Shown here: piece after piece, positions 6,982 to 23,612 of the stretch
How the letters are laid out: each line of letters opens with the position of its first letter
How positions within the stretch are numbered: position 1 is the first letter of the stretch
Source of the DNA: Longivirga aurantiaca
GTDB taxonomy: Bacteria > Actinomycetota > Actinomycetes > S36-B12 > CAIYMF01
Reading direction: 5' to 3'
Assembly: GCF_042660085.1 (NCBI RefSeq)
Contig: NZ_JBHSTI010000002.1
Location: 360,001 to 392,000 of the forward strand
Length of the DNA stretch: 32,000 nt
The notes under the pieces: generated by a model
Databases searched by the model: none
Told to the model about the DNA's origin: nothing
What the model saw: only the letters and a program-made list of their open reading frames with translations
Position numbers and translations under genes: made by a program

Positions 6982-7016
6982 CGTCACGGCCCGTCACCCG
7001 ACGGGCGCCGAGGGTG

Positions 7017-7181
7017 GACGCCGAGTCCTGCCAGCCACCCACGGTCATGACCTCGCTGGCAGGAGCGGGGGACCCAGGATTTCCGGGCCTCGCCGCACGG
7101 CGAGCCCTCGGGGTGAAGCCGGTCCCCGGACCGGCCGGGTCAATCCACGACCCGAACCCGACAGCTCACCTCGCAGGCGTC
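7017..7181 (+). promoter_or_regulatory. cyclic-di-AMP riboswitch (ydaO/yuaA class)
   Basis: The conserved blocks GGAGCGGGGGACCCA, GGGGTGAAGCC and CCCGAACCCGACAGCTCACCTCGCAGGCGTC occur in the canonical order. The closing helix pairs GACGCC (7017-7022) with GGCGTC (7176-7181). The element ends 2 nt before the GGAGG RBS of an NlpC/P60 gene, a classic actinobacterial context for this class. Confidence 0.8.
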
Positions 7182-7192
7182 GTGGAGGACTC

Positions 7193-7834
7193 ATGGCGTC
7201 TGCTCGCGCACGCCTGGGCGCGGCCGTCTCGGCTGCCCTGGCGATCACGTTGCTGCCCGCGTTCACCGCGTCCGCCTCGGCGGCCGTGGCCGACGACACC
7301 GGTACGTCGACCTCGACGATCACCGGCACCTCGGTGGTCACCTCGACCTTGACGACCAGCAGCCTCTCGACCTCGACCACCGCGGTGAGCACCACTGCCC
7401 CCGCGTCGTTCTCCCTGCCGGTCTCGCGGACCGGGTACGTCACCCTGAGCGCGGCGGCCAAGGCCGACCCGGTCGTGCGCGGCAAGGCCGTGGCCCAGAC
7501 CGCCGCCCGCTTCGCCGGCGTCCCGTACGTCGCTGGCGGCACGAGCCCCGCCGTCGGCTTCGACTGCTCCGGCTACACGCGCTACGTGTACTCGCGCCTC
7601 GGTATCTCGCTGCCGCGCGTCTCGCGCGACCAGTACGCCGCAGCGACGCCGATCCCGCGGAGCACGGCAGTCAAGGGCGACCTCGTGTTCTTCTACAGCA
7701 CGAGCGGCCGGATCTACCACGTGGCGATCTACGCGGGGAACGGCTACATCTGGCACTCGCCGTACCCCGGGAAGCGTGTGATGCTGGAGCGCATCTGGAC
7801 CTCGTCCTGGAAGGTCGCGCGCGTCCGCGCCTGA
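7193..7834 (+). CDS. secreted NlpC/P60-family peptidoglycan endopeptidase
   Basis: Signal peptide MASARARLGAAVSAALAITLLPAFTASASA, followed by a Thr/Ser-rich linker. The catalytic region is GVPYVAGGTSPAVGFDCSGYTRYVY...GDLVFF...HVAIYAGNG. Confidence 0.9.
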   Translation: MASARARLGAAVSAALAITLLPAFTASASAAVADDTGTSTSTITGTSVVTSTLTTSSLSTSTTAVSTTAPASFSLPVSRTGYVTLSAAAKADPVVRGKAVAQTAARFAGVPYVAGGTSPAVGFDCSGYTRYVYSRLGISLPRVSRDQYAAATPIPRSTAVKGDLVFFYSTSGRIYHVAIYAGNGYIWHSPYPGKRVMLERIWTSSWKVARVRA

Positions 7835-18050: not shown

Positions 18051-18894
18051 CCTTCACCGGATCGCGGCCGCGGCCGCGCAGGTCCTGCTCGAGCCGTGAG
18101 AGCGCGGTCTGCACCTCTGCGAGGCGGGTGAGCATCTCGGCGTCGTCCGCCTGCTCGCGCTTGTCCTCCTCCTCGCGCGCCTTCTCCATCGAGCTGATCA
18201 CGACGCCGATGAGGAGGTTGAAGACGATGAACGCCGCCAGCAGCACGTACGAGACGAAGAACGGGATGGCGAACATGCTGACAGGCTCGGCCTCGGCGAG
18301 GTACGTCGGGAAGTTCTCGAGCGTCAGCAGCACGAAGAGCGTGAGCATCGACCGGCCGATGGTCCCCCACGTCTCGGGGAGCGCCGCGCCGAACAGCGAC
18401 CAGCCGATCATGCCGTAGACGAACAGCAGCAGGACCGTGAGCACCACCATGCTCGCGACGGCGGGGATCGACTTGATGACCGTGAGCACGAGCATGCGGG
18501 CGTCGGGGAGGAAGCGCACCAGGCGCACGATCCGCGCGAGGCGCAGGAGCCGGAGCAGCTGGGCCTGCTCGCGCACGCCCGGGAGCAGGACAGCCCCGAT
18601 CACCACGAGGTCGAAGACGTTCCAGCCGTTGCGCAGGAAGTCCTGTGGCCGGCGGCCGTACGACGCGATGCGGAGGCCGAGCTCGACGACGAAGACCACG
18701 AAGAAGAGCTCGTTGAGCAGCACGAGCACGCCGCCGTACGAGTCCATGACCTCCGGGTAGGTCTCGAGCCCGAGGACGACGGCGTTCGCCACGATGACCG
18801 CAGCGATCGCGAGGTTGAAGCGGGACGAGTCGACGAGCCGGGCGATACGCCCGGCCCGTCGACTGTCACCTCCCGACGCGGAGGAGGAGGTCAC
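18019..18894 (-). CDS. voltage-gated ion channel, single 6-TM repeat, BacNav/NaChBac-like, with an atypical TLENFPT filter
   Basis: GTG at 18894 forms a GTGA overlap with the TerC stop; 291 aa. S4 is RLLRLARIVRLVRFL, with Arg at every third position. The pore is LTLFVLLTLENFPT, compared with TLESWSM in NaChBac. S6 is followed by a C-terminal coiled-coil-like tail. Confidence 0.85.
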   Translation of the reverse strand: MTSSSASGGDSRRAGRIARLVDSSRFNLAIAAVIVANAVVLGLETYPEVMDSYGGVLVLLNELFFVVFVVELGLRIASYGRRPQDFLRNGWNVFDLVVIGAVLLPGVREQAQLLRLLRLARIVRLVRFLPDARMLVLTVIKSIPAVASMVVLTVLLLFVYGMIGWSLFGAALPETWGTIGRSMLTLFVLLTLENFPTYLAEAEPVSMFAIPFFVSYVLLAAFIVFNLLIGVVISSMEKAREEEDKREQADDAEMLTRLAEVQTALSRLEQDLRGRGRDPVKVSPRGDAADR

Positions 18895-19982
18895 CCGCGC
18901 CCCTGGGGGGTCGATTCCGCCGGATCGGCGGTGGGCGCGGTGCCGACTGCGTCGGGGTGGTCGGCGGACGGGCTCCCGGACCCGTCCGCCGACCTTTCCG
19001 CGAGATCGACAGGGGCGGCGTCGATCTCGGCGGCGGGGGGGTCCTGGCCGCGCGTGGCGCGCAGGCTGAGGACGATGGAGCCGGTGATGATCGACGTGAC
19101 CACCACGAGCGAGACCCAGGTCGGGATCTTCACGATGTCCACGACCAGGAACATCTTGATGCCGACCCAGATGAGGACGAACGACAGGCCGGCCTTCAGG
19201 TACACGAACCGGTGCATGAGGTCGGCGAGCAGGAAGTACATCGCCCGAAGGCCGAGGATCGCGAAGGCGTTCGAGGCGAAGACGAGGAACGGCTCGCTCG
19301 TCACGGCGAAGACCGCGGGGATCGAGTCGACCGCGAAGATGATGTCGGTGACCTCGATCATCACGAGCACGAGCAGCAGCGGAGTGGCGAGACGCTTGCC
19401 GTTCTTGCGGATCCACAGCTTCTGGCCGTGGTACTCGTCGGTCGACGGCACGCGCCGGCGCCACCACGCGACGATCTTGGACGTCGACGGGTCGATGTGC
19501 GCGTCGCGCGTGCGCCACATCTTCCAGCCCGTCCAGACCAGGAAGAGCGCGAAGATGTACAGCACCCAGGCGAACGACGCGATGAGGGCGGAGCCGGCGG
19601 CGATGAAGATCGCGCGGAACACGAGGGCGCCGACGACACCGAGGAAGAGCACGCGGTGCTGGTACTGCCTCGGGACGGCGAAGTAGCTGAAGATGATCGC
19701 CCAGACGAACACGTTGTCGACGGCGAGCGACTTCTCGATCACGTACCCGGCGAAGTACTGCTGGCCGAACTCCGCGCCGTACACGGCCCAGATGACGCCG
19801 CCGGCGACGACGCCGATCGCGACCCAGATCCCTGTCCAGGTGGCGGCCTCGCGCACGGGGATCTCGTGGGCGTCGCGGTGCAGGAAGAGGTCGACGGCGA
19901 GCATCGCGAGAATCGCGACGAGCACGGCGCCCCAGGCGAGAAGGGACACGTCCACAGGAGAAACCTCCAGGTCGTACGGCAT
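18891..19982 (-). CDS. TerC-family integral membrane protein (putative Mn2+/metal exporter)
   Basis: ATG at 19982 (MPYDLEV) is in frame; 363 aa. Contains EKSLAVDNVFVW, EVTDIIFAVDSIPAVFAVT and AILGLRAMYFLL. Confidence 0.88.
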   Translation of the reverse strand: MPYDLEVSPVDVSLLAWGAVLVAILAMLAVDLFLHRDAHEIPVREAATWTGIWVAIGVVAGGVIWAVYGAEFGQQYFAGYVIEKSLAVDNVFVWAIIFSYFAVPRQYQHRVLFLGVVGALVFRAIFIAAGSALIASFAWVLYIFALFLVWTGWKMWRTRDAHIDPSTSKIVAWWRRRVPSTDEYHGQKLWIRKNGKRLATPLLLVLVMIEVTDIIFAVDSIPAVFAVTSEPFLVFASNAFAILGLRAMYFLLADLMHRFVYLKAGLSFVLIWVGIKMFLVVDIVKIPTWVSLVVVTSIITGSIVLSLRATRGQDPPAAEIDAAPVDLAERSADGSGSPSADHPDAVGTAPTADPAESTPQGRG

Positions 19983-19994
19983 CCCGGAAGAAAT

Positions 19995-20105
19995 GCCGTC
20001 GCAGGCCTGGTCTCCTTCACCCGGCGAGCCGGGCGGCGTCCCGGGCGGCACACGGGCCGCCGTACTGACGAGACGCTCTTGGTGAAGTACTCCCCACCGC
20101 GAACG
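19995..20105 (-). promoter_or_regulatory. yybP-ykoY (Mn2+-sensing) riboswitch in the terC leader
   Basis: The minus strand reads GGUGGGGAGUAC-CUUCACC ... GGUGAAG-GAGACC. The two conserved blocks flank a complementary helix about 25 nt upstream of the TerC ATG. TerC is a canonical downstream gene for this class. Confidence 0.7.
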
Positions 20106-20200
20106 CTAATACACGAACTGCATTTCCTGCAAATCGCACCAGGTGGGGGTCGAACCGCATCGCTGGGGACGCGTTCGGACCTCCAGCCCGAGACCCCCGC

Positions 20201-20252
20201 CGATTTGGTAGTGGAAAGTCGCGGCAGGGCGCGACTTTCCACTACCAAGTCG
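20201..20252. repeat. long perfect hairpin (TTGGTAGTGGAAAGTCGCG-GCAGGG-CGCGACTTTCCACTACCAA), left copy
   Basis: Read directly: 19-bp perfect stem at 20205-20248, extendable to about 23 bp with one G-T pair. Confidence 0.9.
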
Positions 20253-20339
20253 GGGTGCGGCCGGATTCGCCTGTGGTTGCTGTGGATATCGCCTGTCGGT
20301 GGTCGGTGCATTGTCGGAGGTGGTCGGCATGATGGGGTC

Positions 20340-21815
20340 ATGTCGCAGGCCACCATCGTCGATCCGGCGGTGGAGCTCGCGCGCCTGGTCGCGGGTGCGC
20401 GGGGCCTGCTTGCGGAGGCGTCGGCGCTGGCCGGTTCCGGTGCCGTGTCTGAGGTGCAGCTGGCGGGTCTGCCGGAGCTGACGGCGGAGCTGTTCGCGGC
20501 CCGGGACGCCGCCCACGCCCTGGGCGTGGTTGCGGTCGATCGCCTGGACGCGTCGGGGGTGCTGGCGTCGGCGGGGTTCGGGTCGACGACGGCGTTCCTG
20601 ACCCAGCGCACCGGCATGGCCCCCGGCAGGGCCAGCAGCGTCGTCTCCGGCGCCCGCACGCTGCGGTCGTACGCCGCGACGCGCGTCGCGCTGGTCGCGG
20701 GCCGGGTCACCCCGGACCTGGCCGCTGCCCTGGTGCGCGGGTCGGAGGCTGCGATCGCGGACAGGACCGCCGACGACCGGGTGCAGTGGCGGGCGTTCTG
20801 CGAGGACTACCTCCTCCCCATCGCCGAGCAGGGCTCGGTCGAGGAGGTCGTGGGCGCTGCCGCGGTCCTCAAGGAGATCCTGGATCCGGAGGCCGCGGCC
20901 CGCCGGGCCGAGGAGGCGATGGCTCAGCAGTTCTTGACGGTGACCCGGGTGGGGGACCAGTTCGTGATCAAGGGTGCGTTGACCCTGGAGGACGGCGCGG
21001 CGCTCAAGGTGCTGCTGGACCGGATGCGCGACGCGAAGTTCCGGTCGGGCTCGCTCACCCCTGAGGAGCAGCCCACCGGGGATGCCGCGGTCGACGAGCG
21101 CCGGCGCCGGATCGCCGCGGCGCACCAGGACGCCCTGTCGTTGAACCACCTCGTGCAGCTGTGGCTGACCAGCGGCATGGTCGGCCGCGCCCACGGGGTC
21201 CGACCGCACGTCACCATCACCACGTCGGTCGACGACCTCGACGCGGGGTTCCCGGGCGAGATGACCGTCCCCGGGATGTCGTCCCCGGTGCTGGTCAACG
21301 CCGAGACGGTGAAGCGGATGCTGTGCGACGCGTCGGTGACCGAGCTCGGCGTCATCGGGTCCGTCGCGGACCGGCACGCGCACCACCACGACGGCGTCCC
21401 CTGCCACGGCGCTGCCCACCGGGGGCGACACGGGCACGTGCACGGCGTCGGCGGCTGCGAGCTCAACGCGGACTCGGCGCGGTTGCTGCGCCGCCGCCAC
21501 CACGTCTGGGACGAGGGACGCCGGTACCGCACCGTGCCGCCCCGCCTGCGTCGGGCGCTGGACCTGCGGGACCGGCACTGCGCCTTCCCCGGCTGCCGGA
21601 TCGCGGTCGGGTGGTGCGAGGCCCACCACATCACCGAGTGGGAGCACGGCGGCGCGACCGACCTCGACAACCTCACGCTGCTATGCGCGAAGCACCACCA
21701 CGCGGTGCACGAGGGCGGCTGGACCATCGTGAAGAACCCCGGCATCGATCCGGGCTGCCCGACCTGGCTCACCGTCGAACCGCCCGACCCCAGCCCCGTC
21801 CGAACCCGGCCCTGA
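20340..21815 (+). CDS. DUF222 + HNH endonuclease protein (REP13E12-type family)
   Basis: ATG at 20340 is in frame (GTG at 20337 is possible); 491 aa. The C-terminus has RHCAFPGC...CEAHHITEWEHGGATDLDNLTLLCAKHHHAVH, the HNH motif. The N-terminal alpha-helical region is typical of DUF222. Confidence 0.88.
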   Translation: MSQATIVDPAVELARLVAGARGLLAEASALAGSGAVSEVQLAGLPELTAELFAARDAAHALGVVAVDRLDASGVLASAGFGSTTAFLTQRTGMAPGRASSVVSGARTLRSYAATRVALVAGRVTPDLAAALVRGSEAAIADRTADDRVQWRAFCEDYLLPIAEQGSVEEVVGAAAVLKEILDPEAAARRAEEAMAQQFLTVTRVGDQFVIKGALTLEDGAALKVLLDRMRDAKFRSGSLTPEEQPTGDAAVDERRRRIAAAHQDALSLNHLVQLWLTSGMVGRAHGVRPHVTITTSVDDLDAGFPGEMTVPGMSSPVLVNAETVKRMLCDASVTELGVIGSVADRHAHHHDGVPCHGAAHRGRHGHVHGVGGCELNADSARLLRRRHHVWDEGRRYRTVPPRLRRALDLRDRHCAFPGCRIAVGWCEAHHITEWEHGGATDLDNLTLLCAKHHHAVHEGGWTIVKNPGIDPGCPTWLTVEPPDPSPVRTRP

Positions 21816-21951
21816 AGAAGGGCCGGCGCGCGAGGGATCCACCAGCACCACCCCGAGACCGCACCACCCGACAGGGAGCGGTCCCTTCGGCATGTCCAGG
21901 CACGGGTGGCACCGCGAGAAGCAACAGGCAGTCGGCGTCACCGCGGATGGC

Positions 21952-22003
21952 CGATTCGGTAGTGGAATCTCGCGCTCTGCCCCGACTTTCCACTACCAAA
22001 TCG
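21952..22003. repeat. second, partly degenerate copy of the hairpin element, inverted relative to the left copy
   Basis: CGATTCGGTAGTGGAATCTCGCGCTCTGCCCCGACTTTCCACTACCAAATCG. It aligns best to the reverse complement of 20201-20252: the loop is CTCTGCC versus CCCTGCC and the outer flank CCAAATCG is shared. Confidence 0.85.
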
Positions 22004-22060
22004 CGCCCCGACGTGCCGTTCGCGTTCGCTTGGTTCGTGGCCAACCGGCATCATCGCCGC

Positions 22061-22269
22061 GTGCCGACGATCAGGCAACTACTGATGAACGACCTCTGCG
22101 TCGATCTCGGCTTCTGCTTGCCTCCGGAGGCGACCCGGCGCCTGCCTGGCTAGTCCAACCCAGACCCGCCGCGTTCGCCGACGCCATCTTCGAGGCCGAG
22201 GGCTCACCGGGCCCGAGCGTGACCTGCATCGGTACCGAGAGGTTCGCAGGCGGGCGGCTGAGGTCCTGA
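22061..22269 (+). pseudogene. possible frameshifted small ORF (VPTIRQLLMNDLCVDLGFCLPPEATRRLPG* continuing in the -1 frame as ...AAFADAIFEAEGSPGPSV...)
   Basis: Two adjacent short frames with high GC3 are separated by a 1-nt shift near 22150. No recognisable domain. Confidence 0.25.
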
Positions 22270-22388
22270 GCATGGACACGCCCTGGGCGATTGGCGCCGC
22301 TGTCGCTCGTTTCGCGCTGTGCGTGTCTCTTGGGCGCGTGGCGCGGAGGGGGGATGGTCCGCGAGGTCCCCAGGCCGCCCATCACGCG

Positions 22389-23537
22389 TCAGGCGAGTCG
22401 GGCCAGCAGGAGCTTGGCGACGATCTCGGTCATGATCTCGGTCGTGCCGCCGCCGATGCCGAGGATCCGGCTGTCGCGGTAGTGGCGCTCGACCTCGCAC
22501 TCGCGCATGTAGCCCATGCCGCCGTGCAGCTGCACGGCCGCGTCGACCACGCGGTCGCAGGCGGCGACTGCGGTGTTCTTGGCCATCGCGACGCGCATGA
22601 GGACGTCGTCGCCGGCGAGCCAGTCGTCGGTGACGGCACGGGTGTACGTGCGGGCGACGTCGACGTCGCGGGCCATCTCGGCCAGCCGGTGCGCCACCAC
22701 CTGTCGGCTGGCGAGGGGACGGCCGAAGGTTTCCCGCTGGCGCGTCCACGCGATGCTGAGGTCGAGGCAGCGCTGCGCGGTGGCGTACGCCTGGACGGCG
22801 ATCGACAGCCGCTCGGCCGCGAACTGGCCGACGATCTGCAGGAAGCCGGTGCCTTCCGCGCCGACGAGGTTGGCGCGCGGCACGCGCACCTCGTCGAAGG
22901 TGATCCCGGCGGTGTCCGAGCAGAGCCACCCCATCTTCGCGAGGGGTGCCGACACGGTGACGCCGGGTGCGGAGCTGTCGATCACGAGCAGGGAGATCCC
23001 GCCGGCGCCGTCACCGCCCGTGCGGACCGCGGTCGTGATGAAGTCCGCGCGGGTGCCGGACGTGATGTAGAGCTTCGCGCCGCTCACGACGTAGTCGTCG
23101 CCGTCGACGACTGCCCGCGTGCGGATGCCGGCCACGTCGGAGCCGCCGTCCGGCTCCGTGATCGCCAGCGACACGATGCGCTCGCCGGCGAGCACCGGGC
23201 GCGCCACGCGGTCGACCAACGCCGGGTCGCCCGCGGTCACGAGGTGCGGGAGCCCGATGCCGTGGGTGAACAGCGCGGCCACGAGGCCGGACGACGCGCC
23301 CGACAGGATCAGCTCCTCGGCCACGACGAACGCGTCGATCGGCGTGCCGCCGCTGCCACCGACCGACTCCGGGAACCCGATGCCGAGCAGCCCCGCCTCG
23401 GCGGTCTTCCGGTGCAGCTCGCGCGGCACCGATCCGGCCGCCTCCCACTCCGCGAGGTGCGGCAGCACCTCGCGCTCGCTGAAGCGCCGTACCGTCTCGC
23501 GCAGGAGCCGTCGTTCCTCGGTGTCCCAGCTGTCCAT
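22389..23537 (-). CDS. acyl-CoA dehydrogenase
   Basis: 382 aa. Contains LAITEPDGGSDVAG, YITSG, QVVAHRLAEM and QLHGGMGYMRECEVERHYRDSRILGIGGGTTEI. Confidence 0.92.
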   Translation of the reverse strand: MDSWDTEERRLLRETVRRFSEREVLPHLAEWEAAGSVPRELHRKTAEAGLLGIGFPESVGGSGGTPIDAFVVAEELILSGASSGLVAALFTHGIGLPHLVTAGDPALVDRVARPVLAGERIVSLAITEPDGGSDVAGIRTRAVVDGDDYVVSGAKLYITSGTRADFITTAVRTGGDGAGGISLLVIDSSAPGVTVSAPLAKMGWLCSDTAGITFDEVRVPRANLVGAEGTGFLQIVGQFAAERLSIAVQAYATAQRCLDLSIAWTRQRETFGRPLASRQVVAHRLAEMARDVDVARTYTRAVTDDWLAGDDVLMRVAMAKNTAVAACDRVVDAAVQLHGGMGYMRECEVERHYRDSRILGIGGGTTEIMTEIVAKLLLARLA

Positions 23538-23612
23538 GGGCGGTGCCTCTCCCTCATCTGCCGAGCGGGAGGCTCACGCTAGCTGCCGTTGGGGCAGTTG
23601 ACTTCTCGGGTC

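Follow-up and report, generated by a model that had tools for sequence, protein, structure and literature searches.

Do a nuclease gene and the two long palindromes on either side of it make up a mobile unit, with the palindromes as its ends? The question is raised by a locus in a 32,000-nucleotide stretch of Longivirga aurantiaca DNA (hereafter the window), where a gene of the REP13E12 type lies between two hairpins that an earlier note on this DNA had read as palindromic terminal inverted repeats. DUF222-HNH genes of this type are found very widely among Actinobacteria, Mycobacterium tuberculosis being one example. For this locus, the answer is a clear negative: the hairpins on either side of the gene do not mark the ends of a transposon. 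The features on which this answer draws are as follows, in window coordinates.

18891-20051, minus strand: terC, the divergent left neighbor (Pfam TerC PF03741, 5.4e-56)
19950-20132, minus strand: terC 5' leader/promoter region (BLAST against relatives G018, G021, G007, G011, and G042)
20133-20199, plus strand: pre-hairpin segment of the repeated HNH unit, common to paralogs B and E (7-locus alignment, blastn)
20200-20253, no strand: left hairpin, member of a 33-copy family of 53-bp palindromes; AAAG/CTTT arm type, loop in minus orientation
20254-20339, plus strand: conserved 5' region of the HNH unit, in 7/7 paralogs and in G018 and G007
20312-20339, plus strand: RecA-NDp/PafBC-like promoter motif, TGTCGGAG-N8-CATGAT-N6, directly 5' of the ATG
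20340-21815, plus strand: DUF222 + HNH nuclease gene, 491 aa, REP13E12 type, paralog A of 7 (Pfam, tblastn)
21816-21925, plus strand: 3' UTR common to paralogs B, C, D (in part), and F (paralog alignment, blastn)
21926-22018, no strand: R-type composite palindrome, ~95 nt; homology at background outside the palindrome
21951-22003, no strand: right hairpin core; chimeric arms AATC/CTTT, loop in plus orientation
22019-22029, plus strand: TTCGCGTTCGC, apparent continuation of the HNH 3' UTR past the R-type module (short match)
22389-23537, minus strand: acyl-CoA dehydrogenase gene, the convergent right neighbor (Pfam)

Two hairpins bracket a multicopy DUF222-HNH gene

A repeat scan of the window bore out the basic arrangement described earlier, with hairpins at 20200-20253 and 21951-22003 bracketing one DUF222 + HNH gene. 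The left palindrome has 24-nt arms that are 96% complementary and a 6-nt loop (RNA folding energy -49.3 kcal/mol, z -9.2), and the right one, placed by the scan at 21952-22003, has 21-nt arms that are 86% complementary and a 10-nt loop (-31.4 kcal/mol, z -6.2). The motif GGTAGTGGAAAGTCGCG occurs four times in the window with up to three mismatches, vs 0.05 occurrences expected from shuffles. The inverted orientation of the pair also holds, the right hairpin matching the left at 89% identity when inverted and at 81% when direct, and a candidate reading of the second hairpin as a target-site duplication of the first was rejected, as the loops show the copies to be inverted. In the right copy, the outer arm, previously taken to be intact, is of the AAAG variant, but the inner arm is not simply decayed, as had been thought: it is of the AATC variant, which is more common in the alignment of hairpin copies than any other arm type, so that the right hairpin combines two arm subtypes as an AATC/CTTT chimera. 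No Rfam family matched the hairpins, either at gathering thresholds or at E<=1, the sole match being to a spurious plant miRNA model (29.7 bits vs a gathering score of 67). Neither hairpin is followed by a T-run that could form a U-tract, and the terminator scan calls neither.

The 491-aa product matches DUF222 (PF02720, 6.6e-15) and HNH (PF01844, 3.4e-6) in Pfam and has invariant HNH residues C414, C419, H429, H430, H452, H453, and H457. Consistent with its assignment to a multicopy REP13E12-type group, tblastn found seven close and three distant paralogs in the genome. The seven close paralogs share 91-95% amino acid identity, vs ~80% DNA identity for copies at orthologous sites in other species, and are under purifying selection (dN/dS 0.17-0.32). 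An AF2 model of the protein (pLDDT 88.6) was searched with Foldseek against the PDB, where only the HNH domain found counterparts (McrA, ScoMcrA, IscB HNH, Gme HNH), none at E<=1e-3, and DUF222 matched no DNA-binding fold, ParB-like or other; for these reasons, we propose no mechanism on the basis of the fold. A RuvC domain is absent from the protein, whose likeness to IscB is confined to the HNH domain.

A dispersed family of REP-like palindromes

The hairpins belong to a family of 53-bp palindromes, with 33 copies found in the genome by nhmmer and the consensus CGATTYGGTAGTGG-nnnn-TCGCG-loop-CGCGA-nnnn-CCACTACCRAATCG. Stems covary within the family, with 90% of cells paired and 49 double-sided changes vs 25.7 +/- 4.2 in shuffles (0/500 shuffles as high); GTAG occupies stem columns 13-16, where it is paired with CTAC. 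At least 18 of the 33 copies lie 0-15 bp from the stop codon of a called gene, often between convergent genes, and 25 have no HNH gene nearby. The genome-wide count thus describes a REP/terminator-like element placed after ordinary genes rather than the ends of an HNH unit, and the family is lineage-specific and REP-like. High copy numbers occur only in the clade that carries this HNH subfamily, and an HNH gene is present at only 1/30 hairpin loci outside this genome.

Solo hairpin sites have empty orthologous sites in G007, G021, and G018, and the same intergenic gaps are occupied by other palindrome families in other species. Five of 12 solo sites have the hairpin in both this genome and G018, and at the three shared sites seen directly (loci 5, 6, and 7) the inner stems are species-specific, which implies templated overwriting. 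At least three further long-palindrome families share the same placement in this genome. Among the close pairs examined in families 2 to 5, there was no consistent flanked partner gene; family 2 has two pairs ~1 kb apart, one enclosing an ORF with a weak resemblance to AbiEi/REase and the other enclosing two genes that look like those for a PadR regulator and a membrane protein. At a separate G018 locus (L067), in which the repeat scan found no second family hairpin, a 2.6-kb insertion with several ORFs lies beside the hairpin.

Boundaries of the HNH unit and the right-hand palindrome

Homology between the HNH copies does not end at the hairpins, contrary to what had been proposed for terminal repeats of a mobile unit. 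It begins 65-74 bp outside the left hairpin in paralogs A/B/E and D/F, the segment at 20133-20199 setting the left boundary ~65 bp outside the hairpin, and just inside the left hairpin in C and G, while on the right it stops at differing points. Nor is every paralog flanked by the same inverted pair, as the earlier model would predict: the left hairpin is found in 5/7 paralogs and the right in 2/6, and both are present in only two of the six complete copies.

The right hairpin is the core of the R-type module, a discrete unit in which outer arms CGGCAGTCGG and CCGACGTGCCG and an asymmetric bulge surround the core. The module is ~90% identical in A, in F, in a 40%-identity paralog (C8:84059), and at C2:203775, and so follows genes of two HNH subfamilies whose proteins are only 40% identical. 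It appears to have been inserted into the HNH 3' UTR, judging from the 11 nucleotides at 22019-22029, which match AACCGGCA^TTCGCGCTCG in G018 and G007, both without the module; because this match is short, we infer rather than observe the continuation of the 3' UTR beyond it. At C2:203775, the module lies after a phage-integrase gene and beside what reads like a tRNA fragment; when this locus was considered as a possible att site, ARAGORN called no tRNA, and the nearest HNH match on the contig was at C2:380340.

Occupancy of the HNH sites in related species

Orthology with all close relatives (BLAST against G018, G021, G007, G011, and G042) ends at 20132-20135, within the region between terC and the left hairpin, and synteny with G018 resumes at 22385. 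The terC leader contains no riboswitch recognized by Rfam, even at E<=1. An HNH gene sits at the same terC site in two sister species, G018 and G007, and the site of paralog F is likewise occupied at the orthologous position in G007. The nuclease gene has been at the terC site since before these species split, and it is a long-established resident present in multiple copies.

Comparison with empty sites, suggested earlier as a means of defining exact ends, gave ends that are not hairpins. In G042, the one relative without the gene, the absent stretch corresponds to window positions 20136-23612, neither end of which is on a hairpin. At the site of paralog B, a 4,139-bp block has been inserted, flanked by a 19-bp direct repeat; the ends of this block are not hairpins, and the right-hand hairpin, 4 bp away, is the resident one of the site, orthologous to hairpins of G018 and G007.

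These boundaries and occupancies bear directly on the proposal that the gene and its two hairpins are a transposon-like unit. The inverted orientation of the hairpins in copies A and F and the direct repeat around the B block speak for it, but the former is seen in a minority of copies, the latter surrounds a block with non-hairpin ends, homology runs past the left hairpin, the right hairpin is apparently an insertion inside the 3' UTR, and the positions orthologous to the terC and F sites are filled in other species. The two findings that the earlier note had named as contrary to its model, a hairpin dispersed genome-wide and relatives with the gene at the same site, are largely what we see. 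The likeness that had been drawn to ssDNA-hairpin-guided elements fares no better, with no PF01797 match and no RuvC domain in the protein. The model is already largely refuted, and we consider it extremely improbable.

A DNA-damage promoter motif and an upstream hairpin

The RecA-NDp/PafBC-like motif is found upstream of all seven copies, of the 32%-identity paralog, of uvrB, and of a Lhr-like helicase gene, with 20 matches in the genome vs 1 in a reversed control. The motif consensus that we used reportedly comes from Gamulin and co-workers in 2004. The motif lies directly before the ATG, and the HNH mRNA is probably leaderless. The nuclease gene probably responds to DNA damage. The 13E12 genes of M. 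tuberculosis are induced by DNA damage through RecA_NDp or LexA (PMC3381160), and the genes studied here, like these mycobacterial relatives, carry a PafBC-type damage promoter motif. A half match to the SOS box TCGAAC-N4-GTTCGA upstream of the HNH gene was noticed by eye only, and we make no claim for it.

One HNH subfamily keeps a member of its genome's own REP-like hairpin family just upstream. The upstream hairpin is retained in 8/10 subfamily copies in two species (5/7 in this genome, 3/3 in G018), at a distance from the start codon that is fixed within each genome (~87 bp here, ~138 bp in G018), and its variant matches the genome in which it resides: GTGG here and GTGC in 2/3 G018 copies, while the decayed hairpin at the G018 terC site reads GTGG. 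The association between the hairpin family and DUF222-HNH genes is non-random, and for this HNH subfamily it is stronger than simple co-inheritance predicts. Among 10 DUF222-HNH loci of other species, L032 (G018) has the family hairpin upstream, and at two others a long palindrome unrelated to the family lies 76-190 bp before the gene, too few for a rule.

Competing explanations

We think it fairly probable that the locus combines two overlapping things, a REP-like hairpin family and an old HNH gene with a damage-promoter-like motif. Hairpins in the gaps just after stop codons would act as bidirectional transcript-end hairpins, although the lack of a U-tract counts against a terminator function, and their copies would be gained, lost, and homogenized within each genome by a copying or conversion process. 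The HNH genes, old residents at conserved sites and apparently homogenized within the genome, may be kept alike by gene conversion and may have spread by recombination-type events with variable ends rather than by fixed-end transposition. The left hairpin is a conserved part of the repeated HNH unit, inside its boundary and upstream of the gene, and most likely insulates the damage-inducible promoter against read-through from upstream or against the divergent promoter of terC; the right hairpin is the core of a ~95-nt composite family member that apparently landed in the 3' UTR of the unit. The strength of the link between hairpins and HNH subfamily counts against this explanation, as do the R-type module behind two diverged subfamilies and the failure to find a candidate mobilizing enzyme such as a RAYT.

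If the palindrome served mainly as a double-stranded operator, bound by a dimeric protein that is either a regulator or DUF222 itself, it could control the HNH promoter and other genes. The outer half-sites are highly conserved, with GGTAGTG invariant, and a third half-site-like sequence, CGGATTCG(G/C)(T/C)TGTGG, follows just after the left hairpin. Most copies, however, lie after stop codons between convergent genes and not in promoters, compensatory inner-stem changes indicate that pairing is under selection or is the means by which the sequences arise, and arms of 23 bp are far longer than usual operators, all of which makes this reading improbable. A REPtron-like role for the nuclease is unlikely, though less so: the enzyme would recognize the conserved outer hairpin stem and nick or cut it; repair from other copies, a step that we hold equally doubtful, would homogenize or spread hairpins and occasionally carry the nuclease gene into hairpin-bearing sites; and the flanking hairpins, again only tentatively, would be cognate sites of the enzyme, as REPs are for RAYT genes. 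Such a role is possible because the hairpin travels with the HNH subfamily and no RAYT was found, the 96%-complete genome having no PF01797 (Y1 transposase) match where control genomes do match. The retained upstream hairpin of own-genome variant, the R-type module after two diverged subfamilies, the species-specific inner stems at shared solo sites, the existence of chimeric arms, the landing of the B block beside a resident hairpin, and the restriction of high hairpin copy numbers to the clade with the subfamily all favor it. Against it, co-occurrence is confounded by phylogeny, the genomes being closest relatives; hairpins are few in G007, which has the HNH subfamily, and are absent from its terC copy; the other palindrome families share the same placement with no nuclease evident between close pairs; paralogs at 32-35% identity are without hairpins; the unit boundaries fall outside the hairpin; the fold search linked DUF222 to no module known to bind hairpins or palindromes; and HNH genes are rare at hairpin loci in other genomes. 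Extended to the family at large, this reading would make DUF222-HNH nucleases the long-missing partner enzyme of REP-like hairpins in Actinobacteria, a non-HUH, damage-induced enzyme cutting the conserved outer stem, with repair copying hairpins or the gene between sites. We regard that as unlikely too; if true, it would account for the hairpins evolving in concert as well as for the multiplication of REP13E12-type genes, and a nuclease acting on hairpins would represent a new class of REP-mobilizing enzyme.

Comparison with known systems

RAYT genes are typically single-copy, whereas the flanked gene here is a multicopy DUF222-HNH gene, and no Y1/HUH RAYT gene was found in this genome. In other respects, the locus resembles REP/REPIN sequences and REPtrons (Di Nocera 2013, PMC3733652), with short extragenic palindromes in tens of copies, located downstream of coding regions and in the gaps of convergent gene pairs, several such families per genome, and a nuclease-type gene flanked by inverted copies of a genome-dispersed repeat. 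In described GTAG REPs, GTAG (or CGTC) is an unpaired tag at the palindrome end (PMC3733652); here, in contrast, GTAG is inside the stem and paired. The stems are also long for REPs (23 bp), and mobilization by the flanked enzyme is a candidate only.

Like REP13E12/13E12 of M. tuberculosis, the gene family described here is multicopy, has the same two Pfam domains, and has a RecA-NDp-type DNA-damage promoter motif directly upstream. Descriptions of the mycobacterial REP13E12 sequences present them as repeats or insertion elements whose ends are not defined, and do not include flanking hairpin repeats (PMC10589994, PMC3381160).

The locus is unlike IS200/IS605-type elements in having no Y1 TnpA (PF01797) match, the HNH domain alone being IscB-like. 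The I-shaped intrinsic terminators of high-GC Actinobacteria are strong stem-loops after stop codons that have no U-tract. Our hairpins are likewise strong, GC-containing stem-loops after stops, often common to convergent genes, but they are repeats of one sequence family whose outer stems and flanks are conserved, rather than stems that evolved independently. Finally, IS1397/ISKpn1 and some IS110-family elements target REP hairpins. The present locus differs from these in that there is one HNH case only and no transposase in the HNH block; in keeping with such targeting, the 4.1-kb HNH block at the B site lies next to a resident hairpin, and in G018 the orthologous hairpin has an IS481-family element within it.

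Hairpins around the HNH gene

As the earlier note had described, a DUF222/HNH gene in the window lies between two hairpins that match each other better in inverted orientation (89% identity) than directly (81%). A repeat scan of the window places the left palindrome at 20200-20253, with 24-nt arms that are 96% complementary, and the right palindrome at 21952-22003, with 21-nt arms that are 86% complementary. Single-strand folding gives -49.3 kcal/mol (z-score -9.2) for the left hairpin and -31.4 kcal/mol (z-score -6.2) for the right, and the core hairpin motif occurs four times in the window against a chance expectation of 0.05. The genes of the region are as follows:

upstream of the HNH ORF, opposite strand: terC
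20340-21815, + strand: 491-aa ORF with DUF222 and HNH domain matches, between both hairpins
downstream of the HNH ORF, convergent: acyl-CoA dehydrogenase gene

On domains and copy number alike, the HNH gene conforms to the REP13E12 family. The inner arm of the right hairpin, previously described as decayed, instead reads AATC, the commonest variant among aligned copies, and the outer arm reads AAAG; the right hairpin is chimeric, combining two arm subtypes. Elsewhere in the window, a c-di-AMP (ydaO/yuaA) riboswitch is found at 7009-7194 (+), scoring 62.7 bits where the gathering score is 38.

A genome-wide, REP-like hairpin family

In the Longivirga aurantiaca genome (G000; 3.67 Mb, 72% G+C, 71 contigs), in which the window corresponds to C2:360001-392000, a 53-bp palindrome with the consensus CGATTYGGTAGTGG-nnnn-TCGCG-loop-CGCGA-nnnn-CCACTACCRAATCG has 33 robust copies by profile search. 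When all 33 are aligned, 90% of stem cells are paired, and double-sided stem changes number 49 versus 25.7 +/- 4.2 in shuffled alignments (none of 500 shuffles as high), a signal that is lost when the partner column is slid. When genes are called approximately from GC3, a stop codon lies 0-15 bp from at least 18 of the 33, and many copies lie between convergent genes. The genome has at least three further long-palindrome families: CGAGTTACTGCCC... (37 full copies), CTGATCGATCCGTCG... and CACGCACCGAAGTGCCAGAAA.... A large fraction of these palindromes falls no more than 20 bp from the 3' end of a gene (for example, C8:475903, C2:502707, C8:1020257 and C2:120624).

Twelve solo hairpin sites of G000 were compared with five relatives. 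The relative G018 carries a hairpin at the same place in 5 of the 12, and the three of these sites seen directly (loci 5, 6 and 7) have the inner stem of the family variant that G018 itself carries (GGTAGTGC...). In G007, G021 and G018 there are cleanly empty sites where just 2-16 bp separate the stop codons, while at other solo sites a different palindrome family occupies the equivalent gap. Copies of the sister variant number ~30 in G018, ~5 in G007, 2 in G021, 1 in G008 and 0 in G009, and across 185,579 species representatives the pattern is almost confined to the clade of G000. The hairpins are therefore REP-like elements, mostly independent of any neighbouring gene, and in each genome they evolve in concert. 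In its behaviour the family resembles REPs (PMC3733652).

Two ORFs of ~1 kb (C8:1587773-1588899 and C2:574054-575216) show weak, sub-threshold AbiEi_4 and DUF559/REase-like signatures; one ORF lies between a pair of family-1 hairpins, the other between a pair of family-2 hairpins. In G021, three tandem ~97-bp units (C16:25900-27010) lie downstream of the ortholog of the gene upstream of paralog D, each with a half-site, CCTGGTAGTGG, akin to the hairpin arm.

HNH paralogs and their boundaries

Besides three distant DUF222-HNH paralogs (32-40% protein identity), G000 encodes seven close ones (A to G, A being the window gene; 91-95%). Paralog F (C8:2105261-2106753, minus strand) aligns to the query protein as two segments that share residues 43-45, a pattern suggestive of a frameshift or an assembly error; among five intact close paralogs, dN/dS is 0.17-0.32 at a dS of ~0.2. 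Not every close paralog is flanked by the inverted pair: the left hairpin accompanies 5 of 7 and the right hairpin 2 of 6 (A and F). Homology continues ~65 bp leftward of the hairpin in A, B and E, the segment in A starting exactly where cross-species terC-leader orthology ends (20132-20135), and 74 bp leftward in D and F, a stretch that takes in the final ~60 nt of the gene upstream of D, with its stop codon. In C and G it starts just inside the hairpin, and on the right its end point differs from copy to copy. Fixed ends at the hairpins are therefore not observed; a transposon with hairpins as terminal inverted repeats fails every test, and although hairpins and gene are real, the proposed hairpin-ended mobile mechanism is unsupported.

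The convergent gene pair at paralog B exists in four states. G042 lacks a hairpin and has stop codons 16 bp apart; G007 has a decayed hairpin between the genes; G018 (C1:600650-602100) has the orthologous hairpin interrupted by an IS481-family element, accompanied by a 6-bp duplication (GCTAGA); and in G000 a 4,139-bp block (C2:492523-496661), missing from the orthologous site of the other three, separates the stop codon from the resident hairpin (C2:496685). This block holds the pre-hairpin segment, left hairpin, paralog B, a beta-lactamase-like lipoprotein gene and further sequence, and on either side of it is a 19-bp direct repeat, GCCTGCTCGGCCTCTGACC, that matches the final codons of the upstream gene. 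This empty-site comparison yields one end-defined polymorphism, but the hairpins are not the block's ends: the right-hand hairpin is resident and the left-hand one arrived with the block. Paralog B shows a route to hairpin bracketing without hairpins being ends, and it is a single instance of insertion at 4 bp from a hairpin.

At the terC site, G018 is fully syntenic (terC leader, decayed hairpin, HNH gene, 477 bp, acyl-CoA dehydrogenase gene), its HNH gene sharing 80% DNA identity and being split into two frames. In G007 the HNH gene follows terC, no hairpin is present and the right side differs, and in G042 380 bp replaces window positions 20136-23612. G007 also has a copy at the F site. The HNH gene was therefore present at the terC and F sites before the species split. 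Despite this, paralogs of one genome are far more alike than same-site copies of sister species, a likeness that points to gene conversion among them. The terC leader (19950-20132) is conserved across species, and Rfam returned no riboswitch there, yybP-ykoY included, even at E<=1. In G042 (C9:19020-23200, at ~200-530), a ~330-bp element with ~33-nt inverted repeats (GGTGAAGGTGCCCCTGCTTGCGATAGAAGCAAG ...) adjoins the terC leader and looks like a MITE.

A composite module around the right hairpin

The right hairpin is the core of a ~95-nt R-type module (window ~21926-22018), in which the outer arms CGGCAGTCGG / CCGACGTGCCG extend it to a longer, imperfect palindrome. Four copies of the module agree at ~90% identity: those at paralogs A and F, one following the 40%-identity paralog (C8:84059) and one behind a phage-integrase gene (C2:203775). 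C8:2001781 has a fifth copy that has diverged further, and homology drops to background on both sides of the module. Module-less copies in G018 and G007 read AACCGGCA-TTCGCGCTCG, whereas A and F read AACAGGCA-module-TTCGCG.TCGC; judging from these short matches only, the module thus appears to lie inside the HNH 3' UTR. The copy at C2:203775-203827 sits between the 3' end of the phage-integrase-family gene and a sequence resembling the 3' part of a tRNA (no tRNA by ARAGORN), and this locus may be an island border.

Is the nuclease linked to the hairpins?

A functional link, with the DUF222-HNH nuclease acting on hairpins as RAYT does on REPs, seems unlikely on balance. The upstream hairpin does keep a set distance from the ATG (~87 bp in G000, ~138 bp in all three G018 subfamily copies) and a lineage variant (GTGG in G000, GTGC in two of three G018 copies; the decayed hairpin at the G018 terC site reads GTGG), and the R-type module follows two HNH subfamilies of just 40% mutual protein identity. 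This co-occurrence is, however, confounded by relatedness. G007 has the HNH subfamily but few hairpins, the 32-35%-identity paralogs have none, and outside G000 only one of 30 hairpin loci has an HNH gene. Nor is a flanking nuclease partner evident for the other palindrome families, and nothing in the DUF222 fold points to a DNA-binding module. That no Y1/RAYT transposase gene (PF01797) is detectable in the G000 genome counts in favor of such a role, yet it also separates the family from a REPtron, as does the pairing of GTAG within these hairpins where a REPtron has an unpaired tag.

A candidate DNA-damage promoter

All seven close paralogs carry TGTCGGAG-N8-CATGAT-N6-ATG (window copy 20312-20342). 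The 32%-identity paralog has the variant TGTCGGAG-N8-CACGAT-N6-ATG (C8:1496255), G018 and G007 have others, and the same architecture precedes uvrB (C8:1010782) and an Lhr-like helicase gene (C2:636693). Genome-wide, TGTCGG-N10-YAnnnT-N5-9-start codon occurs 20 times versus once in a reversed control. The motif resembles the actinobacterial RecA-NDp/PafBC promoter, the consensus compared being reportedly that of Gamulin in 2004. RecA_NDp or LexA sites and DNA-damage induction have been reported for M. tuberculosis 13E12 genes (PMC3381160; PMC8223512). Judged by its upstream motif, the HNH gene probably encodes a damage-induced nuclease and is transcribed as a leaderless mRNA.
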